Shown piece after piece: positions 2,598-44,675 of a stretch of 64,000 nt of DNA (the first letter of the stretch is position 1; the number at the start of each line of letters is the position of its first letter). The notes below the pieces were generated by a model that searched no databases, was not told the origin of the DNA, and worked only from the letters and a program-made list of their open reading frames with translations. A program made the translations under genes and the position numbers. This stretch comes from a virus (lineage: Duplodnaviria > Caudoviricetes), in the IMG/VR virus record IMGVR_UViG_3300037297_000386. One strand, written 5' to 3'.

Positions 2598-3041
2598 TTA
2601 TTTGCCTGGTGCCTTCTCGAAAGGGAGATCATCAATCTTTTCAAACAATACTATTGCCTTATCATAAACTACGTCAGAAAGGTTAGATTCTCCTATATCG
2701 TCCAATCTATCAGCCACTTTAACAAGTTCATTAATAGCGTGTGCGTATCTACCAACAAGAGAGCCGGTGGGCATCTTATTAAGCATTTCAATCAATTTAT
2801 TCTGTTGTTCAATTTGATTTTCTACAAGCCCGCCATCTCCACGTGCCTCAGCTACATATACTGATTCTGGATGTGCTTGTTCTATAATATTTTTTTCTGG
2901 AGATTTCTGTCTTTTTTCTTCAATAACCCTTTTGTCTTCTTGATGTGGGTTAGGTGAAGGTGTAGCAGTCTTCTTGATTCCAAACAAATCCTTCTCTTCA
3001 GCAATTTTCAAAAACTCTTCCAATACTATGGAATTATTCAT
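2598..3041 (-). CDS. Hypothetical head-region protein with AHP..LVE..EQQ motif and helical LADxLD module
   Basis: AGGAG RBS; motifs AHPESVYV..GLVENQIEQQ and LVKVADRLDDIGESNLSDVV shared with neighbours. Confidence 0.6.
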   Translation of the reverse strand: MNNSIVLEEFLKIAEEKDLFGIKKTATPSPNPHQEDKRVIEEKRQKSPEKNIIEQAHPESVYVAEARGDGGLVENQIEQQNKLIEMLNKMPTGSLVGRYAHAINELVKVADRLDDIGESNLSDVVYDKAIVLFEKIDDLPFEKAPGK

Positions 3042-3319
3042 TATACTCTCCTATTGTCGAACCTTTCTGCTTTATATTGTTTATGATTGGTGTATTGGCC
3101 ATTTGCAACTTTTATCATATGTCCCGGATCTAAATTGTTTTCTCTGCAATATTTGGACAAGTTTTTAATTATCTCAACTTTTCCACTTGGTTTTGTAATT
3201 TTCCAATGTTTCGCGTTAAATTTATGGCCAACTCACAATTTTTTACTTAAAGACTGTATAGTTTGCCCTATATATTTTTTATTATAAATTTCATTCCTGA
3301 CTACATATATTATTCCCAT
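3041..3319 (-). pseudogene. Degenerate GIY-YIG homing endonuclease (internal deletion plus in-frame TGA)
   Basis: Manual translation: MGIIYVVRNEIYNKKYIGQTIQSLSKKL*VGHKFNAKHWKITKPSGKVEIIKNLSKYCRENNLDPGHMIKVANGQYTNHKQYKAERFDNRRV*; GIY..YIG start, NUMOD-like C-terminal half, TGA at 3233-3235, GGAG RBS. Confidence 0.75.
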
Positions 3320-3332
3320 ATATAGTCTCCAT

Positions 3333-3974
3333 CTACATTAATCTGGTAAATGGTTGCATTAATTGAGACGGATCAGCTACAAAACTCATAAGTCCTTCTA
3401 AATTTTCATCAGTAAAATCTTTGCTTTCTGGAATTTCATGATTGTTAGTATCTTCTAGATATAACTGACCAGGCAATTTGGTTGTCCCAGACGTTTGCGC
3501 ATAAATATCTCCAATTTTTGTAAGTCCAACAGCCAATAATAGGAATTTGACTGCTTTCCACAGAATTTGTATTAACTTTGGTATTGCTCCAATAAGTTTT
3601 AATAATCCACCAAACCATGCTAGTTTAATAATATCATTTTCTGTAGCACCTACTGATGGTTTCAAAAGATTTTTAAGAAATCCGCCGATACCCTCTAATA
3701 AATCATTTTCTTGTATCTGTAGATTTGTGTTTGGAGCCCATCCCATAGCGTTATCTATTGCTTTTCCTAAATCCGAAAGACCGTATCCGAAAAAAGTAGC
3801 AATTTTCTCTAATATAAACACACCCCATCCAAGACCTGGGACAAAAGGAATCAAATATGTTATGATACGGAAGAAATTTTCACAGAATCCTTCGTTTTGG
3901 CGCCATACAGATTTTATGGTTTCACCTAGATCAGATAACTCCCATGCCCGTTTTGAAATAGCATTACCAGTCAT
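3333..3974 (-). CDS. Hypothetical membrane-associated protein with N-terminal ISKRA motif
   Basis: MTGNAISKRA start; hydrophobic segments IITYLIPFVPGLGWGVFIL and WFGGLLKLIGAIPKLIQILWKAVKFLLLAVGL. Confidence 0.55.
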   Translation of the reverse strand: MTGNAISKRAWELSDLGETIKSVWRQNEGFCENFFRIITYLIPFVPGLGWGVFILEKIATFFGYGLSDLGKAIDNAMGWAPNTNLQIQENDLLEGIGGFLKNLLKPSVGATENDIIKLAWFGGLLKLIGAIPKLIQILWKAVKFLLLAVGLTKIGDIYAQTSGTTKLPGQLYLEDTNNHEIPESKDFTDENLEGLMSFVADPSQLMQPFTRLM

Positions 3975-5412
3975 GTAACATCCTATAGGTCAATAATTCT
4001 TCGTCTTGAATCGGCCTATCTTTATATCCGCGGGGTTTTTCCGGCATAACTTGTCTTTGTGAAACTGGTCTAACAGGACCGAGGCCAGCCATGCCGGTTT
4101 CTATACCTTGTTTACTTAAGTTTCTTGCTATAGGAGCAATCACACGATACACACTTCTAAGCAATTGAGGTCTGTCGCGCATCATTTTAATATTTTGTAA
4201 TGCGTCAAACCCGACTTTAGATCTCTCAGCAACTTCTTGTTGGATTCTCCAATCAGAAGATATGGCTCCTACTAGAGCATCAGCTGTGACAGGCCCATAT
4301 ATTCCATCTTCTCTAACGACACCAGCACCAGAATTTAATGCCGTGTTAATCTGATTCACGACCAATTGCAAACCACGAATAAAAGGATCACCTCTCGACC
4401 TACTTTTACTTGGTACAGTTCTTTGTTTTTCTGGACTTTGGGATCTATCTCTAGGAAGAACTTTTCTACCATCGCCAAGTGTCAAAGCTCTTTTAGATAT
4501 TGCTTTATGCACACTAGCCTTGGCTGTAATCATTTCTATACCATGTTCCATTAATAGCTTAAGGTCTTGCATAGGCTTTGTAACAGATATTATTTCTTGT
4601 TGGGTCAATGGTGCATAACCTTCTGACTTTCCTAAAAGACGTTGTACTACATTCCAAGAAGCTCGTTCAGCATCTGTATCAAACGTGGGAGGCTTACCAC
4701 CTGACATTTCTGTTAACCTTGTATATAATCGATCAACATCTTTAGCCAACTTTTGATAATCAATTTTTGTTCGACTTTGTAAATCCTTAATTGTTTCTTG
4801 GGCCGCCTGTTGCGCTCTTACTTTAGCTTGTTCAACTGATTGTCCCATGGTTTTAGTAGTAAGTTGTAATGCATGCTCAGCTTGTGCATCATCCCATCCC
4901 CAATCTGTCAAATTTTCTTTTACCACCGGCCATTCGACCAACATCTGTTTTAGATATTCATAAACTTGTTTTATAGACATATATTTTTGAATATTCTGTC
5001 GAGCCCGTTCTTGTATATTAGTGGTAGTAGGTGGCAATTCTAGTACAGATTTGTAAGAATTTAACTGTTGTATCCAAGACTGTACTTTTGGAGCAGCAAT
5101 ATTATTTGGATCCAAATCCTCTAGACGATCTATAAGATCAGATAAATTATTATCCATTTGTCTAGTCAGATACCATATTCCCATAGTGAGAGCTGCACCA
5201 CCTAAAATAGCCCAACCAATCGGACCAGCGGCTGCACCTATACCAGCCATTGCACCGGCTCCACTAGCTGTACCTGCAACTCCAGCAGCTCCAGCTGCAA
5301 CAGCTGCATCTATTGCAGCACCAATACCAAGTTCTGTTATAATGTCTCTCCAGGTCCATCCTTCTTTTATGAACCAATCAGATGGATCTGTTTCAGTTTT
5401 AAGTTTGTGCAT
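3964..5412 (-). CDS. Hypothetical protein: Gly/Ala-rich hydrophobic N-terminus, ISKRA motif, C-terminal peptidoglycan-binding-like domain
   Basis: IGAAIDAAVAAGAAGVAGTASGAGAMAGIGAAAGPIGWAILGGAALTMGIWYL; ISKRA at 4486-4500; GLQLVVN..EDGIYGPVTADAL. Confidence 0.55.
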   Translation of the reverse strand: MHKLKTETDPSDWFIKEGWTWRDIITELGIGAAIDAAVAAGAAGVAGTASGAGAMAGIGAAAGPIGWAILGGAALTMGIWYLTRQMDNNLSDLIDRLEDLDPNNIAAPKVQSWIQQLNSYKSVLELPPTTTNIQERARQNIQKYMSIKQVYEYLKQMLVEWPVVKENLTDWGWDDAQAEHALQLTTKTMGQSVEQAKVRAQQAAQETIKDLQSRTKIDYQKLAKDVDRLYTRLTEMSGGKPPTFDTDAERASWNVVQRLLGKSEGYAPLTQQEIISVTKPMQDLKLLMEHGIEMITAKASVHKAISKRALTLGDGRKVLPRDRSQSPEKQRTVPSKSRSRGDPFIRGLQLVVNQINTALNSGAGVVREDGIYGPVTADALVGAISSDWRIQQEVAERSKVGFDALQNIKMMRDRPQLLRSVYRVIAPIARNLSKQGIETGMAGLGPVRPVSQRQVMPEKPRGYKDRPIQDEELLTYRMLHDW

Positions 5413-5422
5413 ATCTAGCCCA

Positions 5423-7072
5423 TTAAAATTGGTTTAAAATAATTCTTAAAGCATTACTATAACCATCTGGATTTGATAAATCGTGATATCTTTCTGATTG
5501 TTCTACCAATTTACGTATACGATTTTGTACACCTGGTTCATCTGCCCATCTAGAGTCCATTCTTACTAAATGACTATAAACTTGATCTTGTAATTTAAGT
5601 CTTGTGCGCTCGTCGGCAGCTACTCTTTCAGTAACTCCTGGCTTCCTAATCTCTTTAGGAGACTTAATGGCCATTTTGATGTCATAAGCTTCCTTTAATT
5701 TGGCACCACTACCATAATTTTCTTTAATATATGATAAGGCTCTTTGTATTCCTCTTCGCATTGGACGCGTAACACCATCTTCAATTCTATTTATAGGAAT
5801 GCGATGTTCACTTTTTACAAAATTTTCATCCCCAAGAATCCCCTTCATCATCTTCATATACCAATCAGCAAATTTCTTGGCAGTTGGCCAATCTGTTAAG
5901 ACCCTTTGTTTCCACGACATTGTTTTTATATCGCCAACACCTGCTTTACCCTTTTCATCAATAGGAGTCTTCATGTCATAAACCCCGGGAGCTTTAGATT
6001 CTACCTGTTGTTTTAAAGCCACATACTGGTTCATATATGGATACACAGCTGAAAGTGCTTCGTTAAATGTACTGCGTAGTTCGGGTTGTGAATTTACAAG
6101 TCTTTCAATATTATGTCGAGCTTCCTGAAAACTTCTGTTTTTTTGGTTTTGAATTATTGAACGTTGGCCACCAGCCGTAGCACCACCAGGAAGCCTGGAT
6201 ACCATAGTGTCAACCATAGTATCAACCATCTGTTTTTCAACATCTCTTAAAGCATTTTGTTGTGTCGTAGTAACTGCAACTTTTAATATTTCATCAATTC
6301 TATTAGCTGCCTCTGAATGTCCTATATTATCCAATTTATCGGCCAACATATTAAGAGTATAAAACACATAATCTTCCCTAGTGGCAATTTTGTTAATCGC
6401 CTTACGCAATTCTCCAAGATGTTTTCCATACCCCATCTTGTTAAGTTTCAGGTATAAATTAACCAAAGCCGCATATGTGCCTTTTGGAACACTTCTAGCT
6501 ACCCCAACATCGGCATCTTGCTGTTCGACAATTGTCTCGACCAAATTTTCATCAGTCTTACTGTGTGTTAATTCAGTTTTTGTGCCACCGCCAGGATGGG
6601 CCTTTTCTACAAGTTGTTCTCCAGTCTCACCAGATACATTATATATACTTTGTTCAGCGACTTTCTTACTGTCATTTTTATTGGTAGCTTGCTTATCTGA
6701 TTGAATAGATTGTGGAAAATGTTTTTTTAATAGTTGAAGAACCATTGGCTGCCAGCCAAACTCTTTAAATAATATTTGCCCAAGTTTAACCGGATCAGTT
6801 TTAGGAGGTATTTTCCATTGTTTTAAACTATTAAACAAACCAACTAATATTCTTTCTTTTCCCAAATCATTCAAAAAAGCGTCAAAAGCTTTTTTAGCTT
6901 CTGGAATAGCAATTGTAGTTCCCTTCTCAAAAGTTACCACCCCAGGTTCAGTACTCTCAGATTGTTCTACTACTTCAGTGGCTTCCTGAGCTTGTTTGAC
7001 TAGACCATTATTAACAGCAATACGGGCATATTCATTTAGAACTGTGCTTTGATCAAAACCGATATGTTTCAT
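5423..7072 (-). CDS. Hypothetical head-region protein with AHPGG-TELTH motif and helical LADxLD module
   Basis: GGAG RBS; AHPGGGTKTELTHSKTDENLVETIVEQQD also in the protease ORF; LADKLDNIGHSEAANRIDEIL. Confidence 0.6.
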   Translation of the reverse strand: MKHIGFDQSTVLNEYARIAVNNGLVKQAQEATEVVEQSESTEPGVVTFEKGTTIAIPEAKKAFDAFLNDLGKERILVGLFNSLKQWKIPPKTDPVKLGQILFKEFGWQPMVLQLLKKHFPQSIQSDKQATNKNDSKKVAEQSIYNVSGETGEQLVEKAHPGGGTKTELTHSKTDENLVETIVEQQDADVGVARSVPKGTYAALVNLYLKLNKMGYGKHLGELRKAINKIATREDYVFYTLNMLADKLDNIGHSEAANRIDEILKVAVTTTQQNALRDVEKQMVDTMVDTMVSRLPGGATAGGQRSIIQNQKNRSFQEARHNIERLVNSQPELRSTFNEALSAVYPYMNQYVALKQQVESKAPGVYDMKTPIDEKGKAGVGDIKTMSWKQRVLTDWPTAKKFADWYMKMMKGILGDENFVKSEHRIPINRIEDGVTRPMRRGIQRALSYIKENYGSGAKLKEAYDIKMAIKSPKEIRKPGVTERVAADERTRLKLQDQVYSHLVRMDSRWADEPGVQNRIRKLVEQSERYHDLSNPDGYSNALRIILNQF

Positions 7073-7117
7073 TATTATCTCCAGAATATATATAAAATTT
7101 TAAAAATTATTTCCACT

Positions 7118-7792: not shown

Positions 7793-7872
7793 TATTGCTC
7801 CTTAGAACTTTTTCTTAAATTTTAGATTGTTTGAATAGCGCACAATTTATCCTAGACACAACGAAACCATAT

Positions 7873-8583: not shown

Positions 8584-8659
8584 GCCAGAGTTGTTATTTT
8601 ATTTTCCCTAAAAAACAACTTATGTTACATTCACTATTTTAATTAAAAAATATCTATTA

Positions 8660-8986
8660 TTACTCTTCGGACGACTTGTCTGATTGAAAGCTATCAACAA
8701 TAGTCTTTAATGCATCATCAACTAAATTAGATGCTTCTTCAGCGCCCATGTCATCAAGTTCACCAGCCAGTTTCACCAAATCATTAACCACACTTATTAA
8801 GCTGGCTTTTTTATCATTTTTTTCTTTTTCCTTATCCTTTGCCTCATCTTTCTTTTCTTCCTCGTCTTTTTCATCTTTATCATTTTCATCTTTATCATTT
8901 TCATCTTTTTTAGCTGCATTCTTAACCATATCAGTATTTAATAAGGATGCAAGTTCTAAAATCATTTCGTCTCCAGCTCGTGTCAT
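8660..8986 (-). CDS. Small acidic K/D/E-rich protein ending in helical LAxELD module
   Basis: GGAG RBS; DENDK repeats; LVKLAGELDDMGAEEASNLVDDAL. Confidence 0.6.
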   Translation of the reverse strand: MTRAGDEMILELASLLNTDMVKNAAKKDENDKDENDKDEKDEEEKKDEAKDKEKEKNDKKASLISVVNDLVKLAGELDDMGAEEASNLVDDALKTIVDSFQSDKSSEE

Positions 8987-9003: not shown

Positions 9004-10335
9004 TTACTTATGCTTCTCTCTGAAAGCATTTGTAGCCCAGTCGTTAAACTGTTTAGTCTTGAAAATATTAGGAATATTATTTATATAAAAATCAGGATGT
9101 GTTCTGGCTATCTCGCCAGCCAAACGACGCATCTTGTTAAAAATTCTATCTTTAAATAAATATGTTTCAGGAATATTTTTAATTCTTTCTTTCTCAAATC
9201 TAATCAGATTGTTCCATAAATCAGGCAACATACTGTATATCTCCGGGCCTTGTTTATACAAATCAAACATTAATACTTCATGGGGATGACGTTTGATCGA
9301 TTCTGTAATTGCTTTGCCCATCCATTTCTTTAAATCATGTGGCCGACGTAATCCCCATTCAAAATATTTAATAGGATTATATTCTATTAAATTGTTCATA
9401 GCAATCTCTGTAGCACGTGGATCGCGCCCATCTCTTACTCTTTTATCCTTCCATATATCATTGCCACGCAGATATGTTTTAGGATAATGTTTCGCCAACC
9501 AAACGAGAGACCCACGCCCGTCAGCAGTTTCTCTCGTGCTTATTGACCTTTGTTTCGATTCTGCTTTTTTAAATCTTTCTGCATATGGAGAATCCTTTAT
9601 AGTATCATAAAACTCGGGGATTTCTTCGGATATCTTCTTCAATAATGACCTCATACGATAATGTAGAATGCCAGGAAATATATTACTTTTATCAGTTTCA
9701 GGTGTTTTCTTCAATTCATTGTCTATAGATTTTTCCCATAATTTTGGCAAAAGCTCTTTCATTCCTGGTCTATGGAAAAAAGCAAAAATATGTAATATAA
9801 GTGCTGTCTCTGGATCAGTATTAATCAAATTTTCAGCCGCTCTTTTCATCCATACAGGGTCATCTCCAGGTTTCCTTCTATACATTTCCCATTCAAAATA
9901 TTTTTCAGGCTCTTCTTCTACTATTTTATTAATAAGCTCTTTGGTCAATTTGGTATTAGTTGGATCTGATGCATAGCCTAAAAATGGATCGTGTCCTTTT
10001 AAATAAGCATATGGATAATTCTTGGCCACCCATTCAGGACTGCCAGCATTAGGATCTAACCAGGGTTGTTCGACATGTTCTACTCCAAAATCACTCTTTA
10101 ATTCCTCAACATTTTGATAAGATTCAGGAGCAATCATTTGTGGAATAGGTTGTTCTATTGGAATTGGTATAGCTGGAGCACCCCCTATATCCGGTTTTTC
10201 TTCTTCTAGACCCTCTAATTGTTCAGTTCTAGGATACGGCTTTAGTTGTTCAGTGACAGGTAAAGGTGGAGGGCTAATAATATCTAATATATTAGCCGCG
10301 AATTCAAACATTATTTCATCTCTAGTTTTGAGCAT
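9004..10335 (-). CDS. Hypothetical protein with a ~150-aa internal duplication (helical repeat)
   Basis: WVAKNYPYAYLKG..EPEKYFEWEMYRR vs WLAKHYPKTYLRG..NPIKYFEWGLRR. Confidence 0.65.
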   Translation of the reverse strand: MLKTRDEIMFEFAANILDIISPPPLPVTEQLKPYPRTEQLEGLEEEKPDIGGAPAIPIPIEQPIPQMIAPESYQNVEELKSDFGVEHVEQPWLDPNAGSPEWVAKNYPYAYLKGHDPFLGYASDPTNTKLTKELINKIVEEEPEKYFEWEMYRRKPGDDPVWMKRAAENLINTDPETALILHIFAFFHRPGMKELLPKLWEKSIDNELKKTPETDKSNIFPGILHYRMRSLLKKISEEIPEFYDTIKDSPYAERFKKAESKQRSISTRETADGRGSLVWLAKHYPKTYLRGNDIWKDKRVRDGRDPRATEIAMNNLIEYNPIKYFEWGLRRPHDLKKWMGKAITESIKRHPHEVLMFDLYKQGPEIYSMLPDLWNNLIRFEKERIKNIPETYLFKDRIFNKMRRLAGEIARTHPDFYINNIPNIFKTKQFNDWATNAFREKHK

Positions 10336-10585: not shown

Positions 10586-13500
10586 TTACTTCCAACCTAG
10601 TCCGTTCAATTGCGTAACTAAATTTGGTTCTACCACTGGATCTGCACTTGCAGTAACTTCCATAGCTTTTGTAGCTGCATCGGCGCCAACTACTGGTAAT
10701 TTACCAGACTTTTTGTTAGATTTCATACTAGCCACAATGCGCTTAGTCGACTCAAAAGCCGCATTGTCAAACTTCATAATTTCATCGACATATGTATCTA
10801 GGGCAACTCGACTTGGTTCTATCATACCTTTTTCTTGAGCCATAAGACCAAGATCATAAGCCCGACGTAGCTTTACTTTATACGTTTTGTCTTCAGCTTC
10901 TTTTTTCTTGCCAGCAAAATCTTTACTTAGATCAGCACCAAAACTTCCCGTGTCTGGACCTTGGCTCCAATATTTCTTCCAGTATGATGCTGCCGCCGAA
11001 TCTACTTTGCCTTCTGCTACTAGTTTATCTAAATCTTCTACTTTGAGTGCTCCCTTGACAAACTGCTCCTGTAATTTCATCGCTGCTTCACGCACATTGC
11101 GTGGGCCAGATTCAGCAACATCACGCATGGCATCATGAATTTCAGATATTGTCTCGACTTTTGCTTCATCAGTCTTAGTGTGGGTTAATTCAGTCATAGT
11201 GCCTTTTCCACCGGGATGAGCTTCAAAATAAGTTTTCTCTGTCGCATTTTCTGCTTTACCAAGATCAAGCTCATACTTTCCAAGTATCTTATCAGTTGCT
11301 TGTACAACTAACTCTTCACGAGCTCTTTTGCGTGCTTCCTTAAGAGAGGCTTCACTCTCAACAACCTCGTCATCAGCATAACTAGAAGAATCATTAATAA
11401 GATCCTCTAAACTATCATCAGTATCTACTTCGGTGACAACACAGTCATCGGCCGGCACACCACAGTCATGCGCTTGACCAGGAACTAATTTGGATCCACA
11501 CTGCTCACAAAACTGTCCATTACCCATAGCTTTTGCTAGCAAGGCTGCGCGATTTTCGGATCTAATTTTTAATGCATCTTCTAAAAGTTTTTGGGCTTCT
11601 TTTTTATCTTCCTTGTCGTTTTCATCTTTCTCTTCTTTCTTATCCTTATCGTCTTTATCCTTATCGTCTTTCTTATCTTTGTCTTTACCTTTCTCTTTTT
11701 GGAATTTCTCTAGACCAGGAGGAAGTTTACCAGCTTCTTTCTTCTCATATTTTTCATCCTCATTTTTAGCCTTCTCTTCTTTTTTATCTTTCTTGTCGTT
11801 TTCATCTTTCTCTTCTTTCTTATCTTTATTTTTCTTAGCCTCAAGAACCATAGAAGTTTCTTTAAGAATAGTTTGTGAGTCTTCCCATGCTTGTTCAGCT
11901 GCCTTAAGCAATCTTTCATTCACTTCACCATCCAGCGCTTCACTAATAAGGGCTAGTTCATCAGCTGACTCGTTCAGAAGAGATTCTACTTTTAGAACTT
12001 CTTCGCGAGAAGCCAATGCACCTTCCATTGGTGCCATCTCTGGCGTCTTTTCAGCAGCTTCACCCTTGGAGTCCTCATCGATATTAACATCAATATCAAC
12101 TAATTCTTCTTCCATACCTGAAGCTAGATCACGAATTTCAGCAATTTTTTCTTCCATAGCATTTAATGCTGAATCAATTTTACCTTGCGTCTCTTCTTTT
12201 GGCTGTTTAACTTCAACTGGCTTTTCGGAATCTTTAGGAGCTGTTTCTCCACCTTCTGAAGGAATAGGTTCTCCTAATTGATCTCCTATTGGAGCCATTT
12301 CACCACCTGCTCCACCTGCTCCACCTGCTAATGGATCTGTCATAGGAGGTTGGGCTCCCTTCAATAAATAAGCAACGCGATCGAATCCTTCAGAACGAAT
12401 ATACTTTATAACATCTCCGCCATATTCTCTGGAACTCAGGTAATCCCAATTCTCATCTATATCATCACCAAAAATTTCGGAGCCGGTAGCCGTCAAAATA
12501 AGCTTGCCACCAGCATAAATATCCCATCTAGAGGCACTTTTACATAGCTGTCCATCATGATCAGCAACTTTTGTAAATTTTGCGCTAAGCTTGGCACGAA
12601 GTAACTTTTTCTTAAGTTCCATATCGCCAGGAACAGTGCCATCTTTTCCGCCCATATCATACAATCCCTGAAGATGTTTGTCTTCATTATTGCGAACTTT
12701 CTCTGCCATTGGGTCTTTTTCATACTTTGGTTTTCCAGGAGTAGGCTCATTAACACCACCACCGCCTAACCAATAAGCTCGACGTTTCATTGCCCTTTCT
12801 TCTAATTTAGCTTTACTCAAGTTTAGTCCATTACGACCAGCGTCACGTAATTTTTCCTCATCGCCAGGGTGCAAACCTTCTGATCCTGTTTCTAATGGCT
12901 GACCTGTCATTTGTTTGTCTTCTTTATTTCGAATGCTTTCTGCATCCTCTTTTTCATACTTTGGTTTTCCAGGAGTAGGCTCATTAACGCCACCACCGCC
13001 TAACCAATAAGCTCTTCGTGCCTTTGCACGAGCACGCAATCTCGCAGAATTCATGTTGTTCTCCTCCTTAGAGACTTTTTTAAGTTCGTTTAATGATTTT
13101 TGCATACTTTCCACCTTGGATCGAAGGAGACGTAATTCTTCTAAATAAGCACCCTGCTTGTCTCCTTCTTTACTTGCATATCTTTCTGTTGGTATCCCAG
13201 ACAATGGTGTAGAAGTTGGCAGTCCTTCTACACCCTCTTCTGACATGGGGCTCCAACTTGGACCACCAGGAGTAGGTCTCATAGGTGGTATAGTCTCATC
13301 TTCTATTTTTTCAATCGATTTATCTTTACTGATCAATTTTGTAATTTCTGCTAATATTTCTGCTGCTGCTTTTTCAGCACCCGCCTCTTTCAGCTCTCTA
13401 TAAGTAGCTGTAAGTTGAGCAAGAGTTCTGGCTTTATCCTCGTCCATTTCAGCAGCTTTTTCTAAATTTTCACTTTGCATCAAACTACTAATTTTTATTC

Positions 13501-14383: not shown

Positions 14384-15528
14384 TCCTCTTCGTCTTCTTC
14401 AATACCTTCTAAAAATTTTTCTAATTCTTCTTCCATTTCATCAGACATTTCTACTTCTTCTGTGGAATCACATTCATCATTACTATCTTCTGCATCTATT
14501 GCTTTTTCATCGTCAGAATTAGCATCAAAAAAATCTAAAGTATTTTGACCTTCATCATGTTTAACGGCATCGACAATATTGTTAAACATTTCCTCTAAAT
14601 CTTTTTTAGATGGTTTCTTGCCGTGCATTAATTCAAAAAATCTCTTTTTGGCTGACTCTAAACCTTCTTGGGTTTTCTCCATGTCTTTAACTATCTTGTC
14701 TAATCCTAAATCTTTCGCCGAATCAGAAAAATCGAAATACCGTAGACGTCTAAAAAGTTCATTAAGACTTTTAATGGATTTTGAATTATTTTGATCGGCG
14801 TCATGTACAAAAATAATTAAATTCTTTTTAACCTTATCGTCTAATTTTTTAAGTGGGGCTTTTGGGCGGGCCGAAAATGATTTTAAAGCACGATCAACTT
14901 CAGAGGCAAGATCAAATTTTCTTTCTTGATCGAATTCATCAGCCATTTTTACCAACACAGATCTAATTTTATTCTCCACTACACTTGCCATTTTTCTCTC
15001 AGTTGATTTCATATCTTCCTGTGTAAACAACGGCTTCCTGTTTTCAACGACTTCGTGAGTTCCAGATAATGCTTCATCCAGATCTTTTTCTCTGCCAACA
15101 TGTTTTGGGTCAAATTCGAACTCTTCTTCTGATAATGTTGGTAAATCTGCTCCCTCTTCAAACCAACCACCTTCTTCTAATTTTCTAATCGTCTCTTTTG
15201 CAGCTTCTGGGACCATATATGTTTGTAATTCTGGAGTATCGCTAATATCACCAAGATTTAAGCCATCAGTCCATTTATCATGAATTTTTGGAATAGCTCG
15301 TACCATATTACCGCGCCCATCTGGGTCTGGCTCTAGAACTAAATCGAAACTGATGGCTTTTCCAAGGGACATAATAACTTCTGGCTTCAATCTAATGAGT
15401 TCAACCAGATCAATGTTCCCACCAGCTTCTTGTGCTAAAGATAAAATAAATTTATCCACTCTATTTGCCATTTTAAGTAAACCAGATTGATTAAGGCGAT
15501 CGGACAATTTGATCAATTTTACAAACAT
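14380..15528 (-). CDS. Hypothetical acidic head-region protein with two helical LxDxLD modules
   Basis: LIKLSDRLNQSGLLKMANRVDKFI and LVKMADEFDQERKFDLASEVDRAL. Confidence 0.6.
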   Translation of the reverse strand: MFVKLIKLSDRLNQSGLLKMANRVDKFILSLAQEAGGNIDLVELIRLKPEVIMSLGKAISFDLVLEPDPDGRGNMVRAIPKIHDKWTDGLNLGDISDTPELQTYMVPEAAKETIRKLEEGGWFEEGADLPTLSEEEFEFDPKHVGREKDLDEALSGTHEVVENRKPLFTQEDMKSTERKMASVVENKIRSVLVKMADEFDQERKFDLASEVDRALKSFSARPKAPLKKLDDKVKKNLIIFVHDADQNNSKSIKSLNELFRRLRYFDFSDSAKDLGLDKIVKDMEKTQEGLESAKKRFFELMHGKKPSKKDLEEMFNNIVDAVKHDEGQNTLDFFDANSDDEKAIDAEDSNDECDSTEEVEMSDEMEEELEKFLEGIEEDEED

Positions 15529-16446: not shown

Positions 16447-17202
16447 TTATTGTTTGCCATACGGAGGCTCTAAATTATTATAAGATGTATAAAAATAACT
16501 ATCAGAGAGTCCATTAAATCCAGAATGCTGGCTGAAATCTGTAGGAACACGGCCATTAGCGCCAACTAATACTTCAGTTCCACCATTTTCTTTTTTGTGC
16601 TTTCTCTTGGTTTTTTGTTTACGTTTTCTCTTCTGTCTACGCTCTAAATTTTTAATAGTTTCAAGCATTTCATCATCTATCATAGTCTTTAAAACGTTAT
16701 CTAACTCGCTAGCTTCACTATATAAGCCCATGTTATCTAATAGATCTGCTAGTTCAGCAATTTTTTCGGCTTCTGGGATATTAAAAACTCCTTGCATACC
16801 TCCAGCTGGTTCTCCAGTCATCATATACTCGCCAGACCCAGGATAATTCATTTGTACATCTGGAACATTATTTATTATTGAATCATTTAAATCATCTTCA
16901 AAATTACCATCTATAGCTGACATGGCATCAAATACCAATTGTGAAGCGTCTATGAAACCCGCTTCTTCCAAAAATCCAGCAATATCAGATAGTTTTGATA
17001 ATGCCTTGGTTTCTTTGTCATCAGTAGACCCATCATCAGCGCGATGTTTAAAAGTTTGTACTTCTTTTTCACGTTGTTTAGCACCAGCCAAAGAATCATA
17101 TGTTCCTAAATTACGTCGATGGCCACTTTCGTCTTTTTTACGACTATATAAACGATATTTACCACTAGGCAATTTTCTTATGATAGCTATTTTAATAAGC
17201 AT
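16447..17202 (-). CDS. Hypothetical protein with helical LADLLD modules and basic tract
   Basis: IAELADLLDNMGLYSEASELDNVL; KRKRKQKTKRKHKK. Confidence 0.6.
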   Translation of the reverse strand: MLIKIAIIRKLPSGKYRLYSRKKDESGHRRNLGTYDSLAGAKQREKEVQTFKHRADDGSTDDKETKALSKLSDIAGFLEEAGFIDASQLVFDAMSAIDGNFEDDLNDSIINNVPDVQMNYPGSGEYMMTGEPAGGMQGVFNIPEAEKIAELADLLDNMGLYSEASELDNVLKTMIDDEMLETIKNLERRQKRKRKQKTKRKHKKENGGTEVLVGANGRVPTDFSQHSGFNGLSDSYFYTSYNNLEPPYGKQ

Positions 17203-17234: not shown

Positions 17235-17726
17235 TTATTGTTGACGTAATTCATTTTTCAATATTTTTTGCATCCATGGAAACATTTTCCTTGCACGTTC
17301 TGTAGCAGGCCCATATAAAGCATCTTCTTTCAAGCGAGGCCCAAAACCACCTCTCACCCTCAAGCCCATATTTTTTAATTGATCCCAAATCTCGTTATAT
17401 TGTTTTTGAAATGCTAAAATATTTGGATCTCTTATTACATCAGGACGTATAACCTGTGGCTTTCCACGTTCTATTAACTTTTGTGGTTCCGGTTTCATAT
17501 TCTTCATTTGTTCGGCGCGATCCCGAAATTCAGCATAATAAGGCTCTGGAACATCCCCAAGACGATCAGTGATATATACATTTCCTTTTTCATCCTTCCA
17601 CTTAAAAATTGGTTGTTCAGCAATGCTTTTTATTACAGAATCTATTTCAGACGCTTCTATATAAAGACCTTTATCGTCCAATTTGTTAGCGAAACTTATA
17701 AGTTCTTCTAAAATTGATACACACAT
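17235..17726 (-). CDS. Hypothetical protein: helical module + DUF4124-like + peptidoglycan-binding-like motifs
   Basis: LISFANKLDDKGLYIEASEIDSVI; FKWKDEKGNVYITD; FQKQYN..EDALYGPATERA. Confidence 0.55.
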   Translation of the reverse strand: MCVSILEELISFANKLDDKGLYIEASEIDSVIKSIAEQPIFKWKDEKGNVYITDRLGDVPEPYYAEFRDRAEQMKNMKPEPQKLIERGKPQVIRPDVIRDPNILAFQKQYNEIWDQLKNMGLRVRGGFGPRLKEDALYGPATERARKMFPWMQKILKNELRQQ

Positions 17727-17735: not shown

Positions 17736-18110
17736 CTATTCCGCGCCCCATCCAGGCTGTAATCTTTGTTTTTTTATTTCTTCTCGTACTGGTTTAAATG
17801 ATGGCTGCACAACAATAATATCATATCGAACATTAGCAGTACCTCTCCCTCTCACTGCAGCTATCATAAAATGACCCATAGATTCTCTAACTTCAGCAAT
17901 CTCTCCGGATCTCAATTTAAATCTATATACAGGTGTAGCTTTTGCAAACTCAGTTGCAATTTCCTCATTAAGCTGCGCGTTTGGCATATGAGCAAATTCT
18001 GGATTAGCTCGTCTAAAATATTTACGTGCCGTGACACTGACACCAATATTTGCCGAAGACATTTCTATAGAAGTAGCAACTATTTTGTGTCGCAAAGATA
18101 TTGGTTTCAT
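17736..18110 (-). CDS. Hypothetical protein
   Basis: 124-aa ORF, ATGA-type overlap with upstream gene. Confidence 0.55.
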   Translation of the reverse strand: MKPISLRHKIVATSIEMSSANIGVSVTARKYFRRANPEFAHMPNAQLNEEIATEFAKATPVYRFKLRSGEIAEVRESMGHFMIAAVRGRGTANVRYDIIVVQPSFKPVREEIKKQRLQPGWGAE

Positions 18111-19003
18111 ATTTTTTTAATAATTTTATCGAGTTCATTAGCTTCATTATAAAATCTTTTTTGATCTAATTGATTAGCAATTTTTGTAAGAATATTAATT
18201 ACAAATGTTTGGCTCTTCTTTTCCCTCAACCAATCATACCAGTATTGTTCCTCATTTGTAACACTGGATGGTGGATCCATATACATTTCTTGTTCTGATG
18301 GAGGAATTGTTACGCCCTTTTCTTTTTGTTCTAACCAATCATTAACATCTTTGTCTGGCCAGTTTAGTTTATCATATGTACCGGCTGGAACTGGCCCATG
18401 GCGTTCATCCCATTCTTCACCACCTACTTCTCTATAAGTCTTCTCTATTTCATGTGGATCAGTAGGTACTTCTAATTTTTCATCTGGCATAACACTAAAC
18501 CTACCTATATTTTCTAATTCTTTCATCTTGCGTTCGTCTTCCAAATACTCATATATTTCTTTTTTATGCCTGTTTATAATTTCTGGGAGAGATTTCCCTA
18601 CATTATTTTCAAGAGTCCCTCTTCCTTTAAAAGTTTCATAGGCTATCTCGCCAGTCCATTCATCAGGATCATAATAATCAACAATAATTTTACCCATTGG
18701 ATCGTTTCTAAGAGCTTCGTCTAATAGTTCTTCTGCTTTTTCGGTCATCTCAACATCTACTAAATTTGATTTTTCTTCAATAGCCCATTCTTCTAAGTCT
18801 GTGTCAGAATATTCATTTATAATTCTATTTAAAAATGAGATCCTTCTTTGCCAATCATCATTGTCTAGATTATTATAATCCTCTCGTACTCTTTCCGCTA
18901 ATCCAGGCGAAACTTTGTATTCTTCTTCCTCAAACATAGAGTCGTCTTTATTTGTATCAACTGCTATTTTAACAAATTTATATGTATCCACTGGTATAGG
19001 CAT
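18107..19003 (-). CDS. Hypothetical acidic protein with C-terminal helical module
   Basis: Ends LTKIANQLDQKRFYNEANELDKIIKKI. Confidence 0.6.
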   Translation of the reverse strand: MPIPVDTYKFVKIAVDTNKDDSMFEEEEYKVSPGLAERVREDYNNLDNDDWQRRISFLNRIINEYSDTDLEEWAIEEKSNLVDVEMTEKAEELLDEALRNDPMGKIIVDYYDPDEWTGEIAYETFKGRGTLENNVGKSLPEIINRHKKEIYEYLEDERKMKELENIGRFSVMPDEKLEVPTDPHEIEKTYREVGGEEWDERHGPVPAGTYDKLNWPDKDVNDWLEQKEKGVTIPPSEQEMYMDPPSSVTNEEQYWYDWLREKKSQTFVINILTKIANQLDQKRFYNEANELDKIIKKI

Positions 19004-19020: not shown

Positions 19021-19953
19021 TTACTTATTTGGACTCTTCGTTTTACTATAGCGCTTGTATATCGAGCTACGTTTGGCATCAGACAGCTGATTGTCCCAGA
19101 TATCTCCAACAATTTCGCTTACACGTTTAGAAGAATAGTCCGGGTTCTTTTTCTTAATTTCGGCAACTTGTTCATTCCACCATTTTTTAGGAGCCTTATG
19201 CTCAGCCCCTTCAGGCTTTTTTTCTCCTGGACCTTTATATGTTTTATACTTAGTTTTCTTTTTAGAAGCTTCTTTCACTAATTCATCAAATTTGTTTGCT
19301 AATGCAGTTTCACCTAATTGATCAAAATAATCTGCAAGAGCAATCATATCATCGGGTTTAATACCAACGCGCTCCGCCATTGATTCCATGACCTTTTCTA
19401 TTTCTTTTGCTTCATTATACATTCCTTTTGTATCAAGTATATATGCTATCTTATACAATGCAACTAATGGACTCATCATAGCCTCCCTACGTTCATTCCT
19501 TTGTTTTAATAAATACAGATGACTTTCATGTAAATCAACCACACCTTGTAATAAATTATCAATCCCATCGGTTAATTCATTATCTTTTTCCATAGATGTT
19601 AAAGCATCAGAAACAATGGAAATAAATTTTTCTTCTGCTTTAATAGATAAAATTGGGAATTTATCTGCTGTATCGGTATCAGATATCAAATTACTTACTA
19701 TATTCGCAGTCATAGCGGTATTTTTATTTGGCCCTATAGAATCCGGGCCAAATATACCTATAGCCTTCTCAGCCACAGAATCTATCTCTTCTTCTATCTC
19801 ATCATATAATCTTTCATACAACAAATGATCTCCATAATAATTATTTCCTGAAGAATGCCAATGCATATGCTCATACATTTCTTCTAAAGCTTCCAAAAAA
19901 GAAAGTATGGTGCTCATATCGTTGGATCCATCTGCTAATACAATTTTAGACAT
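19021..19953 (-). CDS. Dps/ferritin-like domain protein fused to two helical modules and basic C-terminal domain
   Basis: HMHWHSSGNNYYGDHLLYERLYDEIEEEIDSVAEK resembles Dps HW..G..F...H..FE..Y......D..AE motif; GGAG RBS. Confidence 0.65.
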   Translation of the reverse strand: MSKIVLADGSNDMSTILSFLEALEEMYEHMHWHSSGNNYYGDHLLYERLYDEIEEEIDSVAEKAIGIFGPDSIGPNKNTAMTANIVSNLISDTDTADKFPILSIKAEEKFISIVSDALTSMEKDNELTDGIDNLLQGVVDLHESHLYLLKQRNERREAMMSPLVALYKIAYILDTKGMYNEAKEIEKVMESMAERVGIKPDDMIALADYFDQLGETALANKFDELVKEASKKKTKYKTYKGPGEKKPEGAEHKAPKKWWNEQVAEIKKKNPDYSSKRVSEIVGDIWDNQLSDAKRSSIYKRYSKTKSPNK

Positions 19954-20298: not shown

Positions 20299-20676
20299 TT
20301 ATAGTTTAAATAATATTTTATCTATTTCACTAGCTTCATCATAAAACCCATTTCGGTCTAAATTATTAGCCAAACTTACAAGATTATTAAATATATTTAA
20401 AGAAGATTGCTTAGGTAAACCAGTACTATCTACCTGAATACCAGGGTATTTTCTTTTTAATGTTCTAATATAATTCCATATTTCTGGCAAAAGGTCTTTT
20501 ATGCTTGAACCGTTAAATTCCTTATAACTTATCATTTCATTTGATTTGGTATCCATTACTACAACACTTACTGTAGCCATATTTAATATTTCATATCCAT
20601 TTACTTTTATTATATATTGTGACATTGTTTCGGCCTTTTTTGGAATTGTTATCATAATATTTTCATTAGATCTCAA
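20299..20676 (-). CDS. Hypothetical protein with C-terminal helical module
   Basis: Ends LVSLANNLDRNGFYDEASEIDKILFKL; start uncertain. Confidence 0.55.
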   Translation of the reverse strand: MRSNENIMITIPKKAETMSQYIIKVNGYEILNMATVSVVVMDTKSNEMISYKEFNGSSIKDLLPEIWNYIRTLKRKYPGIQVDSTGLPKQSSLNIFNNLVSLANNLDRNGFYDEASEIDKILFKL

Positions 20677-20774: not shown

Positions 20775-21233
20775 CTAATTTTCATCTTTTTTTATCATCC
20801 ATAACCATTTCTTTCCATCTGTATGAACTAATACATATTTCCCTTTCGCTTTTCCGCTCGATATCTCGAACTCAATTTTTTTATTTGACCAACTAATAGG
20901 TTTGTAATGTCCTTTTTGATAAACTGAAACTTTCCCTGCTCCATATTCCCCAGAAGGTATAGTGTAACTACCTGTATAACTCAAAGGATGTGGTTCTGTG
21001 ATAGTTGCAAGTAATCTTTCTCCCTTTGATGGTAATTTCGCTTTTGGTATCGCCCAACTTTCCAGCACATTATCTTTTTGCAGACGTAAATCAAAATGAG
21101 TCCCAGCTCTATGTGCCTCATGTTTTTGGATAACAAATATATTTTTTCCTTTACCATTTTCTTTTGGCTCTTTCGTTTCATTGAAATTCCGTTTCTTTTT
21201 ATAAACTGATAAAGGATCTTTTGATATTGACTT
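20775..21233 (-). other. Polyprotein domain: LigD 3'-phosphoesterase (PE) module
   Basis: FVIQKHEAHRAGTHFDLRLQ..LESWAIPK..TEPHPLSY retains the His/His/Asp/Arg/Glu/His/Tyr catalytic set. Confidence 0.9.
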
Positions 21234-28679: not shown

Positions 28680-28962
28680 ATTTTAGTCTCTTTATTAAAT
28701 ATCCAATAAATCTCCGAATTTTTTGTGCCATAAGCTTTTGTGAATAACTCATGGTTTCTCCCAAGTCTTCACTTTCACGATATGTTAAACTTAATTTATC
28801 ATATATCTTTTTAATTGTGTCTATAACAGATTGAGCATGTGTTATATTTTTTCTAGACATAGATATCTCAAATTCCCTATTTAATGTCGTCAGGGCCTTT
28901 CGTATCGTATATTGATTATTATAGTCAATATACTTATCTATTTTTGTAAATAAATCTATCAT
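28627..28962 (-). CDS. Hypothetical protein
   Basis: 111-aa ORF, ATGA overlap with portal stop. Confidence 0.55.
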   Translation of the reverse strand: MIDLFTKIDKYIDYNNQYTIRKALTTLNREFEISMSRKNITHAQSVIDTIKKIYDKLSLTYRESEDLGETMSYSQKLMAQKIRRFIGYLIKRLKYDFGVGNYEQEIEQTIN

Positions 28963-39299: not shown

Positions 39300-39307
39300 A
39301 TTAAACC

Positions 39308-39997
39308 TTATCTATTTACCTGGCGTGGGCCAAACCATTTATCAGAAAGATGATATAACAAGCCTGTATCAGACCTTTTGTTTTCATATTTTTGCCTTTG
39401 TTTGGACAAGTACTTTTCAACTTTATCAAATGTTTTAGTATATTCTTCTTTTATCTTTTCTAATTTTATTAATAAGTTTTGTAATAAATCATCTTTTTCT
39501 GGTTTATCACATTTATCGTAATATTTCACACTTAATTTAACAAAATTGTTTATTTCGCGTCCTAATAAACTAAATAATCCAAAGAATAGATTACGACTCT
39601 CATTGTTGTCGGCATAAAAGCCTAAAGGATATCCATATAATCCATCTAATCCTATTCCATGAAAAGTTTGTGGAAATAATGGACTGCCTCTAAAAGCAGG
39701 GACTCTTTTGCCAGCCGCAGTATCGCCAAAATCACAATCTACCTTTCCATATTCATCTAATATTTTATCAGCATATGGACACTTACGACATTCTTTATGA
39801 TAAGCATAAACCAGTCTATTTGCTTTAGCTATTCCATCTGATTCTTTTTCATCCTCAATTGGTGCCATTCTTATAATAGAGTTTCCAGCATTTTCACAAC
39901 CCTCTGGAATCGGTAATCCAAATGGGCAATTACGAACATTTTTACCACGAATTGTTGACTCTTTTACAACAACAGATATGCATTCTGTTCTATTCAT
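39308..39997 (-). CDS. Hypothetical Cys-rich protein
   Basis: CPFGLPIPEGC, CRKCPY, CDFGD. Confidence 0.6.
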   Translation of the reverse strand: MNRTECISVVVKESTIRGKNVRNCPFGLPIPEGCENAGNSIIRMAPIEDEKESDGIAKANRLVYAYHKECRKCPYADKILDEYGKVDCDFGDTAAGKRVPAFRGSPLFPQTFHGIGLDGLYGYPLGFYADNNESRNLFFGLFSLLGREINNFVKLSVKYYDKCDKPEKDDLLQNLLIKLEKIKEEYTKTFDKVEKYLSKQRQKYENKRSDTGLLYHLSDKWFGPRQVNR

Positions 39998-42729: not shown

Positions 42730-43423
42730 CTTGTAGGTCTTCTAATTTTACTGGCTCTAATAATGCTTGTGGTCTATATGATGTATTAGATATTTTTCTA
42801 TTAAGTCTTTCTAAAAACATCATTGCCTTCTCCGGTTCAAAATAATCAATACATTCGCGTATTACATCCTGTATCATTACTATTTGATCGTTAAACACAG
42901 TAATATTTACATTATGATCAACAGTTTTATCTGCCAATCCTTCTACAAATTTTTTATACTGGCCAAGCAAATTCATTTGTCTGTCCATAAATTGCCTTAA
43001 TTCTTTATCTCCTTTAGATGCTTGTTCTTCACCACTTGCTACAGCGTTAAACCAATATTCCATTCTCGTTTCTATAATTTTGTCTAATTCCAATATTCTT
43101 CTTGCCACATCTAGTTTGGAATCAACTATTTCATTTATCTTACGATTATAAGCATCTGAGGCTTCAAGCTGCTTTTGCCGTTCTTGTTCCTCTTCTATTT
43201 GTTTTTGAGTGCGTCCGGCTTCTTGTATATCTTTAAGAACTTTTCCTTCTAATTGTAAATTATCTTTTCTAAATTTTTGAAGTGTTACCGACGAAAGCCA
43301 TAATTTCTTATTACTAGAATATTTAGATTTTAACCAAGCTTCTATTTTTCTGACAGATTCTCCGTTATTAAGTTTCTCAATTATTATTTCTTTATCTGGA
43401 TGATTTAATATTTTCTTACTCAT
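42695..43423 (-). CDS. Hypothetical protein with N-terminal HTH-like motif (possible small terminase)
   Basis: HPDKEIIIEKLNNGESVRKIEAWL followed by helical region; small-terminase role is only a guess. Confidence 0.45.
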   Translation of the reverse strand: MSKKILNHPDKEIIIEKLNNGESVRKIEAWLKSKYSSNKKLWLSSVTLQKFRKDNLQLEGKVLKDIQEAGRTQKQIEEEQERQKQLEASDAYNRKINEIVDSKLDVARRILELDKIIETRMEYWFNAVASGEEQASKGDKELRQFMDRQMNLLGQYKKFVEGLADKTVDHNVNITVFNDQIVMIQDVIRECIDYFEPEKAMMFLERLNRKISNTSYRPQALLEPVKLEDLQDAEFEEELDDK

Positions 43424-43538
43424 AATCGAATCTCTTTGCCGCGATGTTCATTATAGTAGCCTTTTACAAGATTATATGTTTGTGAACTATTAGGACATTT
43501 TCCAGTCTTTATTTTGTTGACAATACTTACCACATTTC

Positions 43539-44675
43539 TTAATTGACGACATTTAGAATTTTCTCCCTTGAGTCAAACAGTCTATGTGGTACAGAATAGC
43601 CAGCAGAATCAGGAGTTTGTGCAGCAACCGAAGATCCTGGATGTTCATTCCCATCATAATCTGTCCATCCAGTTTCCCAATTATACACCTGGCCATCTAT
43701 CGGGCATTGATAAGTATTTTCTCCAATCCTACCCATCATCACACCAATATGTTGTGGGCAATGACGAATGCTTAAATGCCCAGCATCTACATGTTGTTGT
43801 GTATTAACATGATGTTTATCTCTCCCTTCGCGATCTATCCTTTCTTGCTCAGTTTTCGGTTCTCGGGTTTGAAGGGAATGGTGATATTTAGAATCATACC
43901 TCTTGCTTTGTTCTGTATCACCTTCACCTTTATAGTCTAAAAAATCTTCAGCCTGCTTTTTAATAAAATTGTCTATAAGATTTGCCTCTTCAATTGCCCC
44001 GACTTTATCTAATCTATCGGCTAAATCAGCGAGTTTTTCAAATGTCTTGCCTGTAGCGCCAAGACTCAACTCCTGGTGTTCTGCTGGAGGAGGAAGAGCA
44101 CCTTCATCATCCTTTACACCATATTGTTCATAATGATTATCCAAAAGCTTTTTCAGATTATTCAGATTATTTTCATGTGGATGCTTAAAATACACATCCA
44201 AGAAAGTTAAAATATGATTTACCCAATCAACTTTGCCAAACTCATCTTCTTCTATATATCTATCTTCGTAATCTGCATGTTTTTGCATTTGATTCTTGAG
44301 TCCAGCAAATATTCCACCTTCTCCAGGGCCATATTCTTCTGACCATTTTATATATTTTGCTAATTCATGTACTAATTCATCATAACGTTCTGCCGTTGGA
44401 TTGCTCAAAAATTCTTTAACCATTTTAGGTATTGTTGATGATTGTTCTCTAGCACCTGGTATACTTTCTACTAATGGTACTTTAGTTTCTTGATATGATT
44501 CTACTGGTTCATATTCTGGTAAGTCCAAAGACACTTCATTTCCATTTTTTACTACATTGTTATTCAATTTAGACAAACCCTCAATTAAACCATCAATTGC
44601 TGCAGCTTTTTCAAATTCACCTTTCTCATCTAAATGATCAGCTAAAGCTATTAGTTCTTTTATATCAAATGTCAT
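43539..44675 (-). CDS. Hypothetical protein with two helical LADxLD modules and C-terminal Cys/His cluster
   Basis: LIALADHLDEKGEFEKAAAIDGL; LADLADRLDKVGAIEEANLIDNF; RHCPQH..QCPID. Confidence 0.6.
   Translation of the reverse strand: MTFDIKELIALADHLDEKGEFEKAAAIDGLIEGLSKLNNNVVKNGNEVSLDLPEYEPVESYQETKVPLVESIPGAREQSSTIPKMVKEFLSNPTAERYDELVHELAKYIKWSEEYGPGEGGIFAGLKNQMQKHADYEDRYIEEDEFGKVDWVNHILTFLDVYFKHPHENNLNNLKKLLDNHYEQYGVKDDEGALPPPAEHQELSLGATGKTFEKLADLADRLDKVGAIEEANLIDNFIKKQAEDFLDYKGEGDTEQSKRYDSKYHHSLQTREPKTEQERIDREGRDKHHVNTQQHVDAGHLSIRHCPQHIGVMMGRIGENTYQCPIDGQVYNWETGWTDYDGNEHPGSSVAAQTPDSAGYSVPHRLFDSREKILNVVN

Follow-up and report, generated by a model that had tools for sequence, protein, structure and literature searches.

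A recurrent helical hairpin on unrelated proteins encoded near the head genes of an uncultivated phage

A module of 28-30 residues, predicted to fold as a helix-turn-helix hairpin, occurs 14 times in ten otherwise unrelated proteins encoded by a 64,000-nucleotide stretch of tailed-phage DNA (the window), which is the reverse strand of bases 23,692-87,691 of the single-contig virus record IMGVR_UViG_3300037297_000386 (162,416 bp). The module is specific, widespread in metagenomic phages, promiscuous with regard to the proteins that bear it, and concentrated in blocks of portal, protease and capsid genes. Gene context and domain architecture suggest a portable docking domain of head assembly, a role put forward tentatively and with somewhat less than even confidence. 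The phage appears, to judge from its sequence, to be an uncultivated, distant relative of Bacillus phage G, since the intact major capsid protein (MCP) of its clade (from the relative L039, 13368-14387) is 54% identical to gp27 of phage G, and its terminase is at most 25% identical to that of any GenBank phage.

A hairpin module in ten carrier proteins

The initial annotation had pointed to 14 segments in ten unrelated proteins of the window and proposed that they constitute a capsid-targeting tag. A profile hidden Markov model (HMM) built from these aligned segments was used to scan all stop-to-stop open reading frames (ORFs, named here by their first coordinate) of at least 40 amino acids (aa) in the six frames of the whole 162,416-bp genome. 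All the indicated copies were present: the scan gave 14 matches at 30.9-47.0 bits in 10 proteins (Table 1), and the next best match in the genome reached 7.1 bits; the maximum was 5.3 bits for reversed ORFs and 6.7 bits for twenty residue shuffles. Circularity was removed by rebuilding the HMM ten times, with one protein omitted each time (leave-one-protein-out, LOO): all ten proteins were recovered at 14-37 bits, and the best non-member remained below 2.5 bits. Exceptions exist at the level of single copies, as copy 16447a was not recovered independently and copy 19021b was weak (about 8 bits). An HMM enlarged with the copies of relatives detected no additional copy in the genome. Weaker copies had also been suggested in ORFs 7118 and 41260, for which no HMM support was obtained; the segment in ORF 41260 was rejected as a module because it follows another conserved pattern, L..D.LG.A..FPEL, which the distant relative L012 shares.

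The mean amino-acid identity among the copies is 34% over a 24-aa core, and the identity at third codon positions is 0.40 compared to the expected 0.34. Because of this low core identity and the near-random third codon positions, the copies are taken to be old and maintained at the protein level rather than recent DNA repeats. With the module masked, no BLAST similarity was detected between the ten proteins, and a search for shared promoter k-mers upstream of the module genes gave no signal besides AT-richness and the ribosome-binding site. The module had been described as often lying at the extreme N- or C-terminus. This is true of a part of the copies: three are N-terminal and two end exactly at the C-terminus, while nine lie elsewhere, two of them within 15 residues of the C-terminus and seven in internal positions.

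The consensus derived from 299 copies is (I/F)xxL(I/V)KLA(D/N)xLDxxGxxxEA(D/N)x(I/V)DxΦΦK, with conserved positions L4, A8, L11, D12 (99%), G15 (98%), A20 (96%), and D24 (92%). The module is acidic, with a mean net charge of about -2.7 to -2.9. In the AlphaFold2 (AF2) models of ORF 19021 and ORF 43539, each module forms two helices (Table 1; predicted local distance difference test, pLDDT, of 70-79 for ORF 19021). The whole-chain predicted template modelling score (pTM) of ORF 43539 is as low as 0.29, and on this ground the models indicate that the modules are independently folded helix-turn-helix hairpins placed on disordered linkers. A complex prediction for the ORF 8660 module with the ORF 17235 module (score 0.07, mark 0.32) is counted neither for nor against binding.

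The module has no match in Pfam or PHROG (scans of the ten proteins), nor in the PDB (sequence profile search), and appears to constitute an unannotated domain family. In the profile search of all PDB sequences, the best resemblance was to a designed tetratricopeptide repeat (TPR) protein and was non-significant; a fungal TPR protein is the sole cellular protein among the top matches. Similarly to TPR motifs, the module is a helix-turn-helix of about 30 residues, with small residues (Ala8 and Ala20) where the two helices touch and Leu at positions 4, 7, and 11. Unlike them, it is solitary or paired rather than arranged in arrays of three or more, and its invariant Asp12, Gly15, and Asp24 are not TPR features; none of the ten proteins matched a Pfam TPR family at E<=0.1.

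The carriers are mostly strongly acidic (net charge -5 to -34). Scaffolding proteins are typically acidic as well. The protein of ORF 8660 (108 aa, net charge -16, rich in Lys, Asp, and Glu), which has its module near the C-terminus and is encoded downstream of the protease gene, appears to be scaffold-like. The Dps-like cargo mentioned in the initial annotation is borne out for ORF 19021, whose residues 12-158 adopt a Dps fold (template modelling score, TM, 0.77-0.81; root-mean-square deviation 2.2 Å to PDB Dps chains); a peptidoglycan-binding-like cargo could not be confirmed by Pfam. In ORF 19021 the Dps-fold domain is followed by two modules in tandem, where the family alignment is at its most conserved, and by a C-terminal three-helix domain. 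The latter (aa 256-302) is basic and gives a weak HMG-box match (E 0.0013); not all members of the family possess it, and it may therefore represent an accessory part that binds DNA. Members of the ORF 43539 family contain two modules and a strongly conserved, zinc-ribbon-like C-terminal domain. In ORF 43539 this domain (aa ~250-378; CPxH...QCPxDG..YNWETGW..GGSVAAQTP) is modelled as zinc-ribbon-like beta structure with pLDDT 79-93. It has no assignment in Pfam, PHROG, BFVD, or the ESM Atlas, and when the model of ORF 43539 was compared by Foldseek with BFVD and the ESM Atlas, the only match was one uncharacterised protein from an uncultured phage.

Placement near head genes and spread among phages

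Nine of the ten carriers, with 12 of the 14 copies, are encoded in a 30.5-kb block that begins where the portal gene ends and extends up to the MCP gene, covering 18.8% of the genome; the binomial probability of this placement (2e-6) is descriptive only, as the genes are not independent. No copy was found by the HMM in the ~130 kb of the remaining genome apart from those in ORF 43539, which lies about 4 kb downstream of the primase gene. The statement that the module is missing from replication genes holds, and can be extended to the rest of the genome beyond the ten carriers.

Placement in the head block recurs in six or more divergent relatives. In G005, whose terminase is 81% identical, five copies follow immediately after the polyprotein. 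The gene order in L039 is portal, 1148-aa protease fusion, genes of 182, 224, 291, 211, and 699 aa, two small genes, and MCP; four adjacent ORFs among those five genes contain module matches (one of them weak), and the carriers occupy the canonical scaffold position. Carriers are located just upstream of the split MCP gene in L040, including P0129 (a homolog of ORF 5423), and on both sides of the protease gene in L049. One carrier directly follows the portal in L112, and another lies ~1.4 kb downstream of the portal in L116. In the complete 335-kb genome G008, one copy belongs to an 886-aa ORF directly upstream of MCP. The 105-kb contig G001, which ends shortly after the terminase, contains only three copies, which are confined to the 8 kb upstream of the terminase gene, and none in its other ~92 kb of upstream non-structural DNA.

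The distribution is variable even among close relatives. A third carrier in relatives is located ~3 kb upstream of the terminase; its ortholog here is ORF 39308, which has only a decayed copy, while the L003 and L005 orthologs retain an intact one, and therefore the module repertoire changes between close relatives. Neither G003 nor G004 (44% terminase identity) has an HMM-detectable copy. The homologue of ORF 43539 in this more distant clade (L012, 3896-4615) contains only degenerate module-like segments, at the same two places.

A search of 1.84 billion representative proteins with the 14-copy profile retrieved 1,408 at E<=1e-3, including 79 at E<=1e-10. The top 150 matches range from 61 to 1365 aa in length, and most of them contain two or three copies, which is partly a ranking effect, as summed bits favour multi-copy proteins. 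A distance of no more than 8 residues separates 92 of their copies from the N-terminus and 32 from the C-terminus. After masking of the module, the top 150 together with the ten window proteins fell into 66 groups, 54 of which are singletons; the two large groups correspond to the ORF 43539 and ORF 19021 families. Pfam recognised Ferritin/DUF5856 in six of the 150 proteins, a double zinc ribbon in two, and T7 capsid-assembly (scaffold) in two.

A DNA-pattern scan of IMG/VR yielded 79 stretches with 78 new loci, 22 of which hold modules by HMM; the other 56 served as negative controls. As many as 18-22 module copies were found in the lineage of G006 and G007 (IMG/VR contigs of 68 and 223 kb). 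In G007 (IMG/VR 3300007513_000004), 12 consecutive genes at 53052-61743 each encode a near-identical module (M-I-N-E-L-I-K-L-A-T-H-L-D-K-K-G-L-H-K-E-A-D-Y-I-D-A-V-I-K-K) immediately after the start codon and continue with unrelated sequence, and the same array is present in L115. The array is the clearest example of an architecture composed of a tag and variable cargo; PHROG annotation recognised no head genes in its neighbourhood. Another G007 gene (110497-112863, minus strand) encodes a 789-aa protein with a CCA-type nucleotidyltransferase domain, which is 31% identical to residues 1089-1332 of the window's polyprotein, and with a module at its C-terminus. The same type of enzyme is thus a part of the head-block polyprotein in the window and module-bearing in G007.

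Docking to the procapsid and other readings

Three systems in which a defined element directs proteins into a capsid or procapsid offer a comparison. Phage T4 uses a capsid targeting sequence (CTS) to bring various internal proteins into its scaffolding core (PMC3012670); it is a strictly N-terminal peptide of ~10 residues, found on IPI-III and Alt and removed by the prohead protease (PMC3012670, PMC9026906). As in T4, one conserved element is shared by unrelated, fast-changing proteins encoded together with head genes (here ten unrelated carriers, nine of them in the block from portal to MCP), the cargo includes enzymes, and the presumed role is recruitment into the prohead scaffolding core. 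Unlike the short CTS peptide, to which it has no sequence similarity, the module is a folded hairpin of 28-30 residues that may be N-terminal, C-terminal, or internal and present in 2-3 copies. Moreover, the T4 internal proteins are basic, whereas the module carriers are mostly acidic and in this genome have no adjoining processing site.

The scaffolding protein gp8 of phage P22 binds the inner procapsid surface through a C-terminal helix-turn-helix (PMC12005531, PMC9965877), which has been engineered as a cargo tag for P22 particles (PMC9962691). The P22 element resembles the module in size and in being a helix-turn-helix; it terminates an acidic, helical assembly protein, a layout like that of ORF 8660, and it is portable, as foreign cargo fused to it enters procapsids. 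The AF2 models of ORF 43539 and ORF 19021 show a fold of this type (helix-turn-helix, ~30-40 aa). The P22 hairpin is naturally present on the scaffold only, unlike the module, which is found on ten or more different proteins; no scaffold chain was retrieved at E<=10 in the module profile search of all PDB sequences. With no sequence similarity, with its acidic rather than basic character, and being position-independent, multi-copy, and not evidently cleaved, the module belongs to neither the P22 hairpin nor the T4 CTS family. Encapsulin cargo-loading peptides are short, extended C-terminal motifs that target cargo, including ferritin- and Dps-like proteins, to the inside of an HK97-fold shell (PMC8346489, PMC8802124). 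The likeness consists in a Dps/ferritin-type cargo with an appended element, as in ORF 19021 with its Dps fold and two modules; unlike these peptides, the module is a folded hairpin at any position with no sequence similarity to them, and the shell is a DNA-filled phage capsid.

According to the mechanism proposed here, one to three hairpins, set on flexible linkers, would be present on each cargo protein, whether scaffold-like or accessory; a Dps-type ferroxidase, a zinc-ribbon protein, and acidic proteins belong to this cargo. The hairpin would bind a common procapsid site, either the inner face of the phage-G-type MCP or the scaffold/protease core, and the proteins bearing it would thereby be co-assembled into the prohead. 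We infer that a component of the procapsid is the binding partner of the module and that the carriers are taken into the head, where they might stay transiently like a scaffold or permanently like ejection proteins. The module is probably retained on the protein, or acts as a part of it, in this genome, rather than behaving as a cleaved leader. Docking is tentatively preferred because of the specificity of the module, its placement in the head block and the recurrence of this placement in relatives, the hairpin structure, the tag-like architecture, the cargo parallels, the acidity, and the P22 and T4 precedents. In particular, terminal position, flexible linkers, variable cargo, and arrays of module-first genes are what a docking tag would be expected to look like.

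Several observations weigh against docking in the head. The gene of ORF 43539, a member of the most widespread family of carriers, is located outside the head block, between the primase and packaging genes; in relatives, both it and the next gene are carriers and lie ~4-5 kb downstream of the primase. The three-copy protein P0002 is encoded among MoxR/vWA, ligase, and exonuclease genes, and four of the five copies in G008 (three of them weak) are far from head genes. The G006/G007 lineage has no detectable similarity to the TerL, portal, or MCP of the window's clade; hence any capsid receptor common to the two would need to be conserved in structure and not in sequence. Phage G, with an MCP 54% identical to that of the clade, has no module copy, and tblastn searches with ORF 43539 and ORF 19021 against GenBank phages gave no match and revealed no cultured carrier. 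The P22 hairpin binds through basic residues, unlike the acidic module (mean -2.7) with its two near-invariant Asp residues, D12 and D24. Of the 57 window proteins, only three contain the motif ISKR[AL], a candidate prohead-protease site: the polyprotein (seven occurrences), ORF 3333 (3333-3974; one, at residue 6), and ORF 3964 (3964-5412; one, at residue 305). The module proteins all lack it. Finally, the clustering of the module genes could partly result from local duplication and shuffling rather than from shared function. The capsid-targeting proposal of the initial annotation is thus upheld with regard to a discrete, portable, folded hairpin that clusters with head genes, and is weakened by the location of ORF 43539 outside the head block and by ISKRA-type sites not being adjacent to the modules.

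Self-association of the hairpins, which would pair as four-helix bundles or by TPR-like stacking in trans, is an unlikely explanation of the same data. One-copy proteins would be recruited, and two- or three-copy proteins would cross-link, a multivalent internal core, scaffold, or condensate; the head would still be loaded, via co-polymerisation with a module-bearing scaffold instead of binding to MCP. In its favour, more hydrophobic positions are conserved (1, 4, 5, 7, 8, and 11 in helix A; 16/17, 20, 23, 26, and 27 in helix B) than a lone hairpin needs, modules paired in tandem through linkers of ~10 residues are very frequent, the G007 modules are homogenised within the genome, and the presence of the module in lineages without detectable common capsid genes is readily explained. 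Most of the top matches also have 2-3 copies, an enrichment that is partly a scoring artefact of summed bits. Against it, the two modules of ORF 43539 are confidently folded in the AF2 model, yet given the low pTM neither their mutual arrangement nor their position with respect to the remaining domains is predicted with confidence. The sharing of the module by lineages without detectable common structural genes is also compatible with an adaptor for a hub other than the capsid, such as a host chaperone, protease, or polymerase, or a phage replication/transcription or assembly factory; proximity to head genes would then reflect only late co-expression or local domain shuffling. The location of the ORF 43539 family and P0002 among non-structural genes, the dispersed copies of G008, and a TPR-like pattern typical of general protein-protein adaptors fit such a role. 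It is nevertheless considered improbable, given the strong association with portal, protease, and MCP genes repeated in many relatives, the lack of copies in the ~130 kb of the rest of this genome and in 92 kb of G001, and the scaffold-like acidic proteins among the carriers.

A cleavable leader of the T4 type, from which the prohead protease would cut at a terminal Φ-x-K/R-x-A/S/G after targeting to the core, is more improbable still. The ending Φ-x-[KR]-x-[AGS], expected in 6.6%, is seen in half of the 301 modules family-wide and in 17 of the 19 from G007; the ISKRA linkers of the head-block polyprotein are of this form too, and many copies begin at residues 2-6. Only three of the 14 copies in this genome have such an ending, and none ends in the strict I-S-K-R-A/L; besides, modules are also internal or at exact C-termini, K-x-A may merely be the end of helix B, and the cleavage at ISKRA is itself putative. 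With so few such endings, none of them strict, and with the ISKRA sites not adjacent, a mode of targeting followed by removal is possible in some lineages and not indicated here.

Taken further, docking to the procapsid would make the hairpin an uncleaved, position-independent, sequence-readable 'address domain' that loads fast-changing cargo (a Dps-type ferroxidase dodecamer, nucleic-acid enzymes) into the heads of many uncultivated large phages (more than 1,400 protein clusters in several lineages). This extended proposal is regarded as doubtful; if it were true, one could tell from the sequence which proteins are packaged or injected, and the head would constitute an encapsulin-style cargo compartment. 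Docking in the head as such would make the internal or ejected proteome of a large uncultivated group related to Bacillus phage G predictable from sequence. It would also provide a natural, folded, position-independent loading tag for HK97-type shells, useful for cargo encapsulation like the P22 hairpin and the T4 CTS, and the Dps cargo would link phage head assembly to encapsulin-style loading. Regardless of its function, the module merits a family model, as it defines a domain family of more than 1,400 representative members that lacks annotation.

Gene order of the window and neighbouring features

Table 1. Module copies and other features of the window (scores from the HMM of the 14 segments and from its leave-one-protein-out versions)
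Feature	Position	Strand	Remarks
Copy, ORF 2598-3041, aa 100-135	2637..2744	-	HMM 35.9 bits, LOO 18.7; near C-terminus of a 147-aa acidic protein
Copy, ORF 5423-7072, aa 234-267	6272..6373	-	HMM 39.7 bits, LOO 22.6; internal in a 549-aa protein of the ortholog family of P0129
Copy, ORF 8660-8986, aa 65-99	8690..8794	-	HMM 42 bits, LOO 30.6
Copy, ORF 14380-15528, N-terminus, aa 1-34	15427..15528	-	HMM 40.4 bits, LOO 16.2
Second copy, ORF 14380-15528, aa 188-221	14866..14967	-	HMM 38.4 bits, LOO 20.6
Copy a, ORF 16447-17202, aa 65-100	16903..17010	-	HMM 30.9 bits, not recovered in LOO; most divergent copy
Copy b, ORF 16447-17202, aa 143-177	16672..16776	-	HMM 37.6 bits, LOO 27.8
Copy, ORF 17235-17726, N-terminus, aa 3-38	17613..17720	-	HMM 43.1 bits, LOO 30.9
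Copy, ORF 18107-19003, exact C-terminus, aa 266-298	18110..18208	-	HMM 47.1 bits, LOO 36.8
Copy 1, ORF 19021-19953, aa 160-195	19369..19476	-	HMM 41.6 bits; AF2 helices 162-175, 179-196; directly after Dps-type four-helix bundle, aa 12-158
Copy 2, ORF 19021-19953, aa 199-231, in tandem with copy 1	19261..19359	-	HMM 33.2 bits, LOO 8.3 (weak); invariant columns in family alignment; AF2 helices 200-212, 216-232
Copy, ORF 20299-20676, exact C-terminus, aa 93-125	20302..20400	-	HMM 45 bits, LOO 32.1
Copy, ORF 43539-44675, N-terminus, aa 2-36, outside head block	44568..44672	-	HMM 35.8 bits; AF2 helices 5-17, 21-40, pLDDT 94-96
Second copy, ORF 43539-44675, aa 209-243	43947..44051	-	HMM 41.6 bits; AF2 helices 206-225, 228-245, pLDDT 87-92; conserved in family; followed by zinc-ribbon-like domain, aa ~250-378
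Decayed relic, ORF 39308-39997, aa 149-179	39461..39553	-	Below HMM detection; intact module at same position in L003 and L005 orthologs (57-69% identical)
Primase	48382-49149	-	First in transcription order, then sigma-like factor and IF3-like gene
Large terminase	33212-35080	-	Transcribed ahead of portal
Portal gene	28959-33200	-	PHROG portal families, E 3e-46; upstream edge of head block
Polyprotein, 2634 aa, multi-enzyme	20775-28679	-	PHROG nucleotidyltransferase match; ISKR[AL] linkers; between portal and module genes
1265-aa protein with prohead-protease-like domain (aa 116-225)	10586-14383	-	phrog_2774 and phrog_18299 head maturation protease, E 1e-12; ortholog in L039

All genes of the window are located on the minus strand. 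In the order of transcription, the IF3-like gene is followed by ORF 43539, a nucleotidyltransferase gene, a DNA ligase gene (36013), the large terminase, and the portal; then come the polyprotein, the small ORFs from 20299 to 14380, the protease-like ORF 10586, and ORFs 9004, 8660, 7873, 7118, 5423, 3964, 3333, 2598, 949, and 175. ORF 9004 (9004-10335, minus strand; 443 aa), after the protease gene, was considered as a candidate for MCP and ruled out: its ESM Atlas model is all-helical, with weak ARM/HEAT/TPR-like matches (TM ~0.3), and peptide patterns revealed no relatives of it in IMG/VR.

The portal protein, which is 1413 aa long compared to ~630-660 aa in the close relatives L005 and L013, contains a LAGLIDADG_3 domain (Pfam) at residues 597-657; on account of this length and this domain, it probably carries one or more intein-like insertions. 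The MCP gene is located just outside the window start and consists of three coding blocks (genome positions 89227-89514, 90547-90756, and 91934-92452; 4228-4515, 5548-5757, and 6935-7453 in L033 coordinates). It is split by two insertions of ~1.0-1.2 kb, each with a LAGLIDADG endonuclease ORF, and two further such ORFs are located just upstream; the insertions are probably group I introns. The MCP gene is also split in the relative L040.

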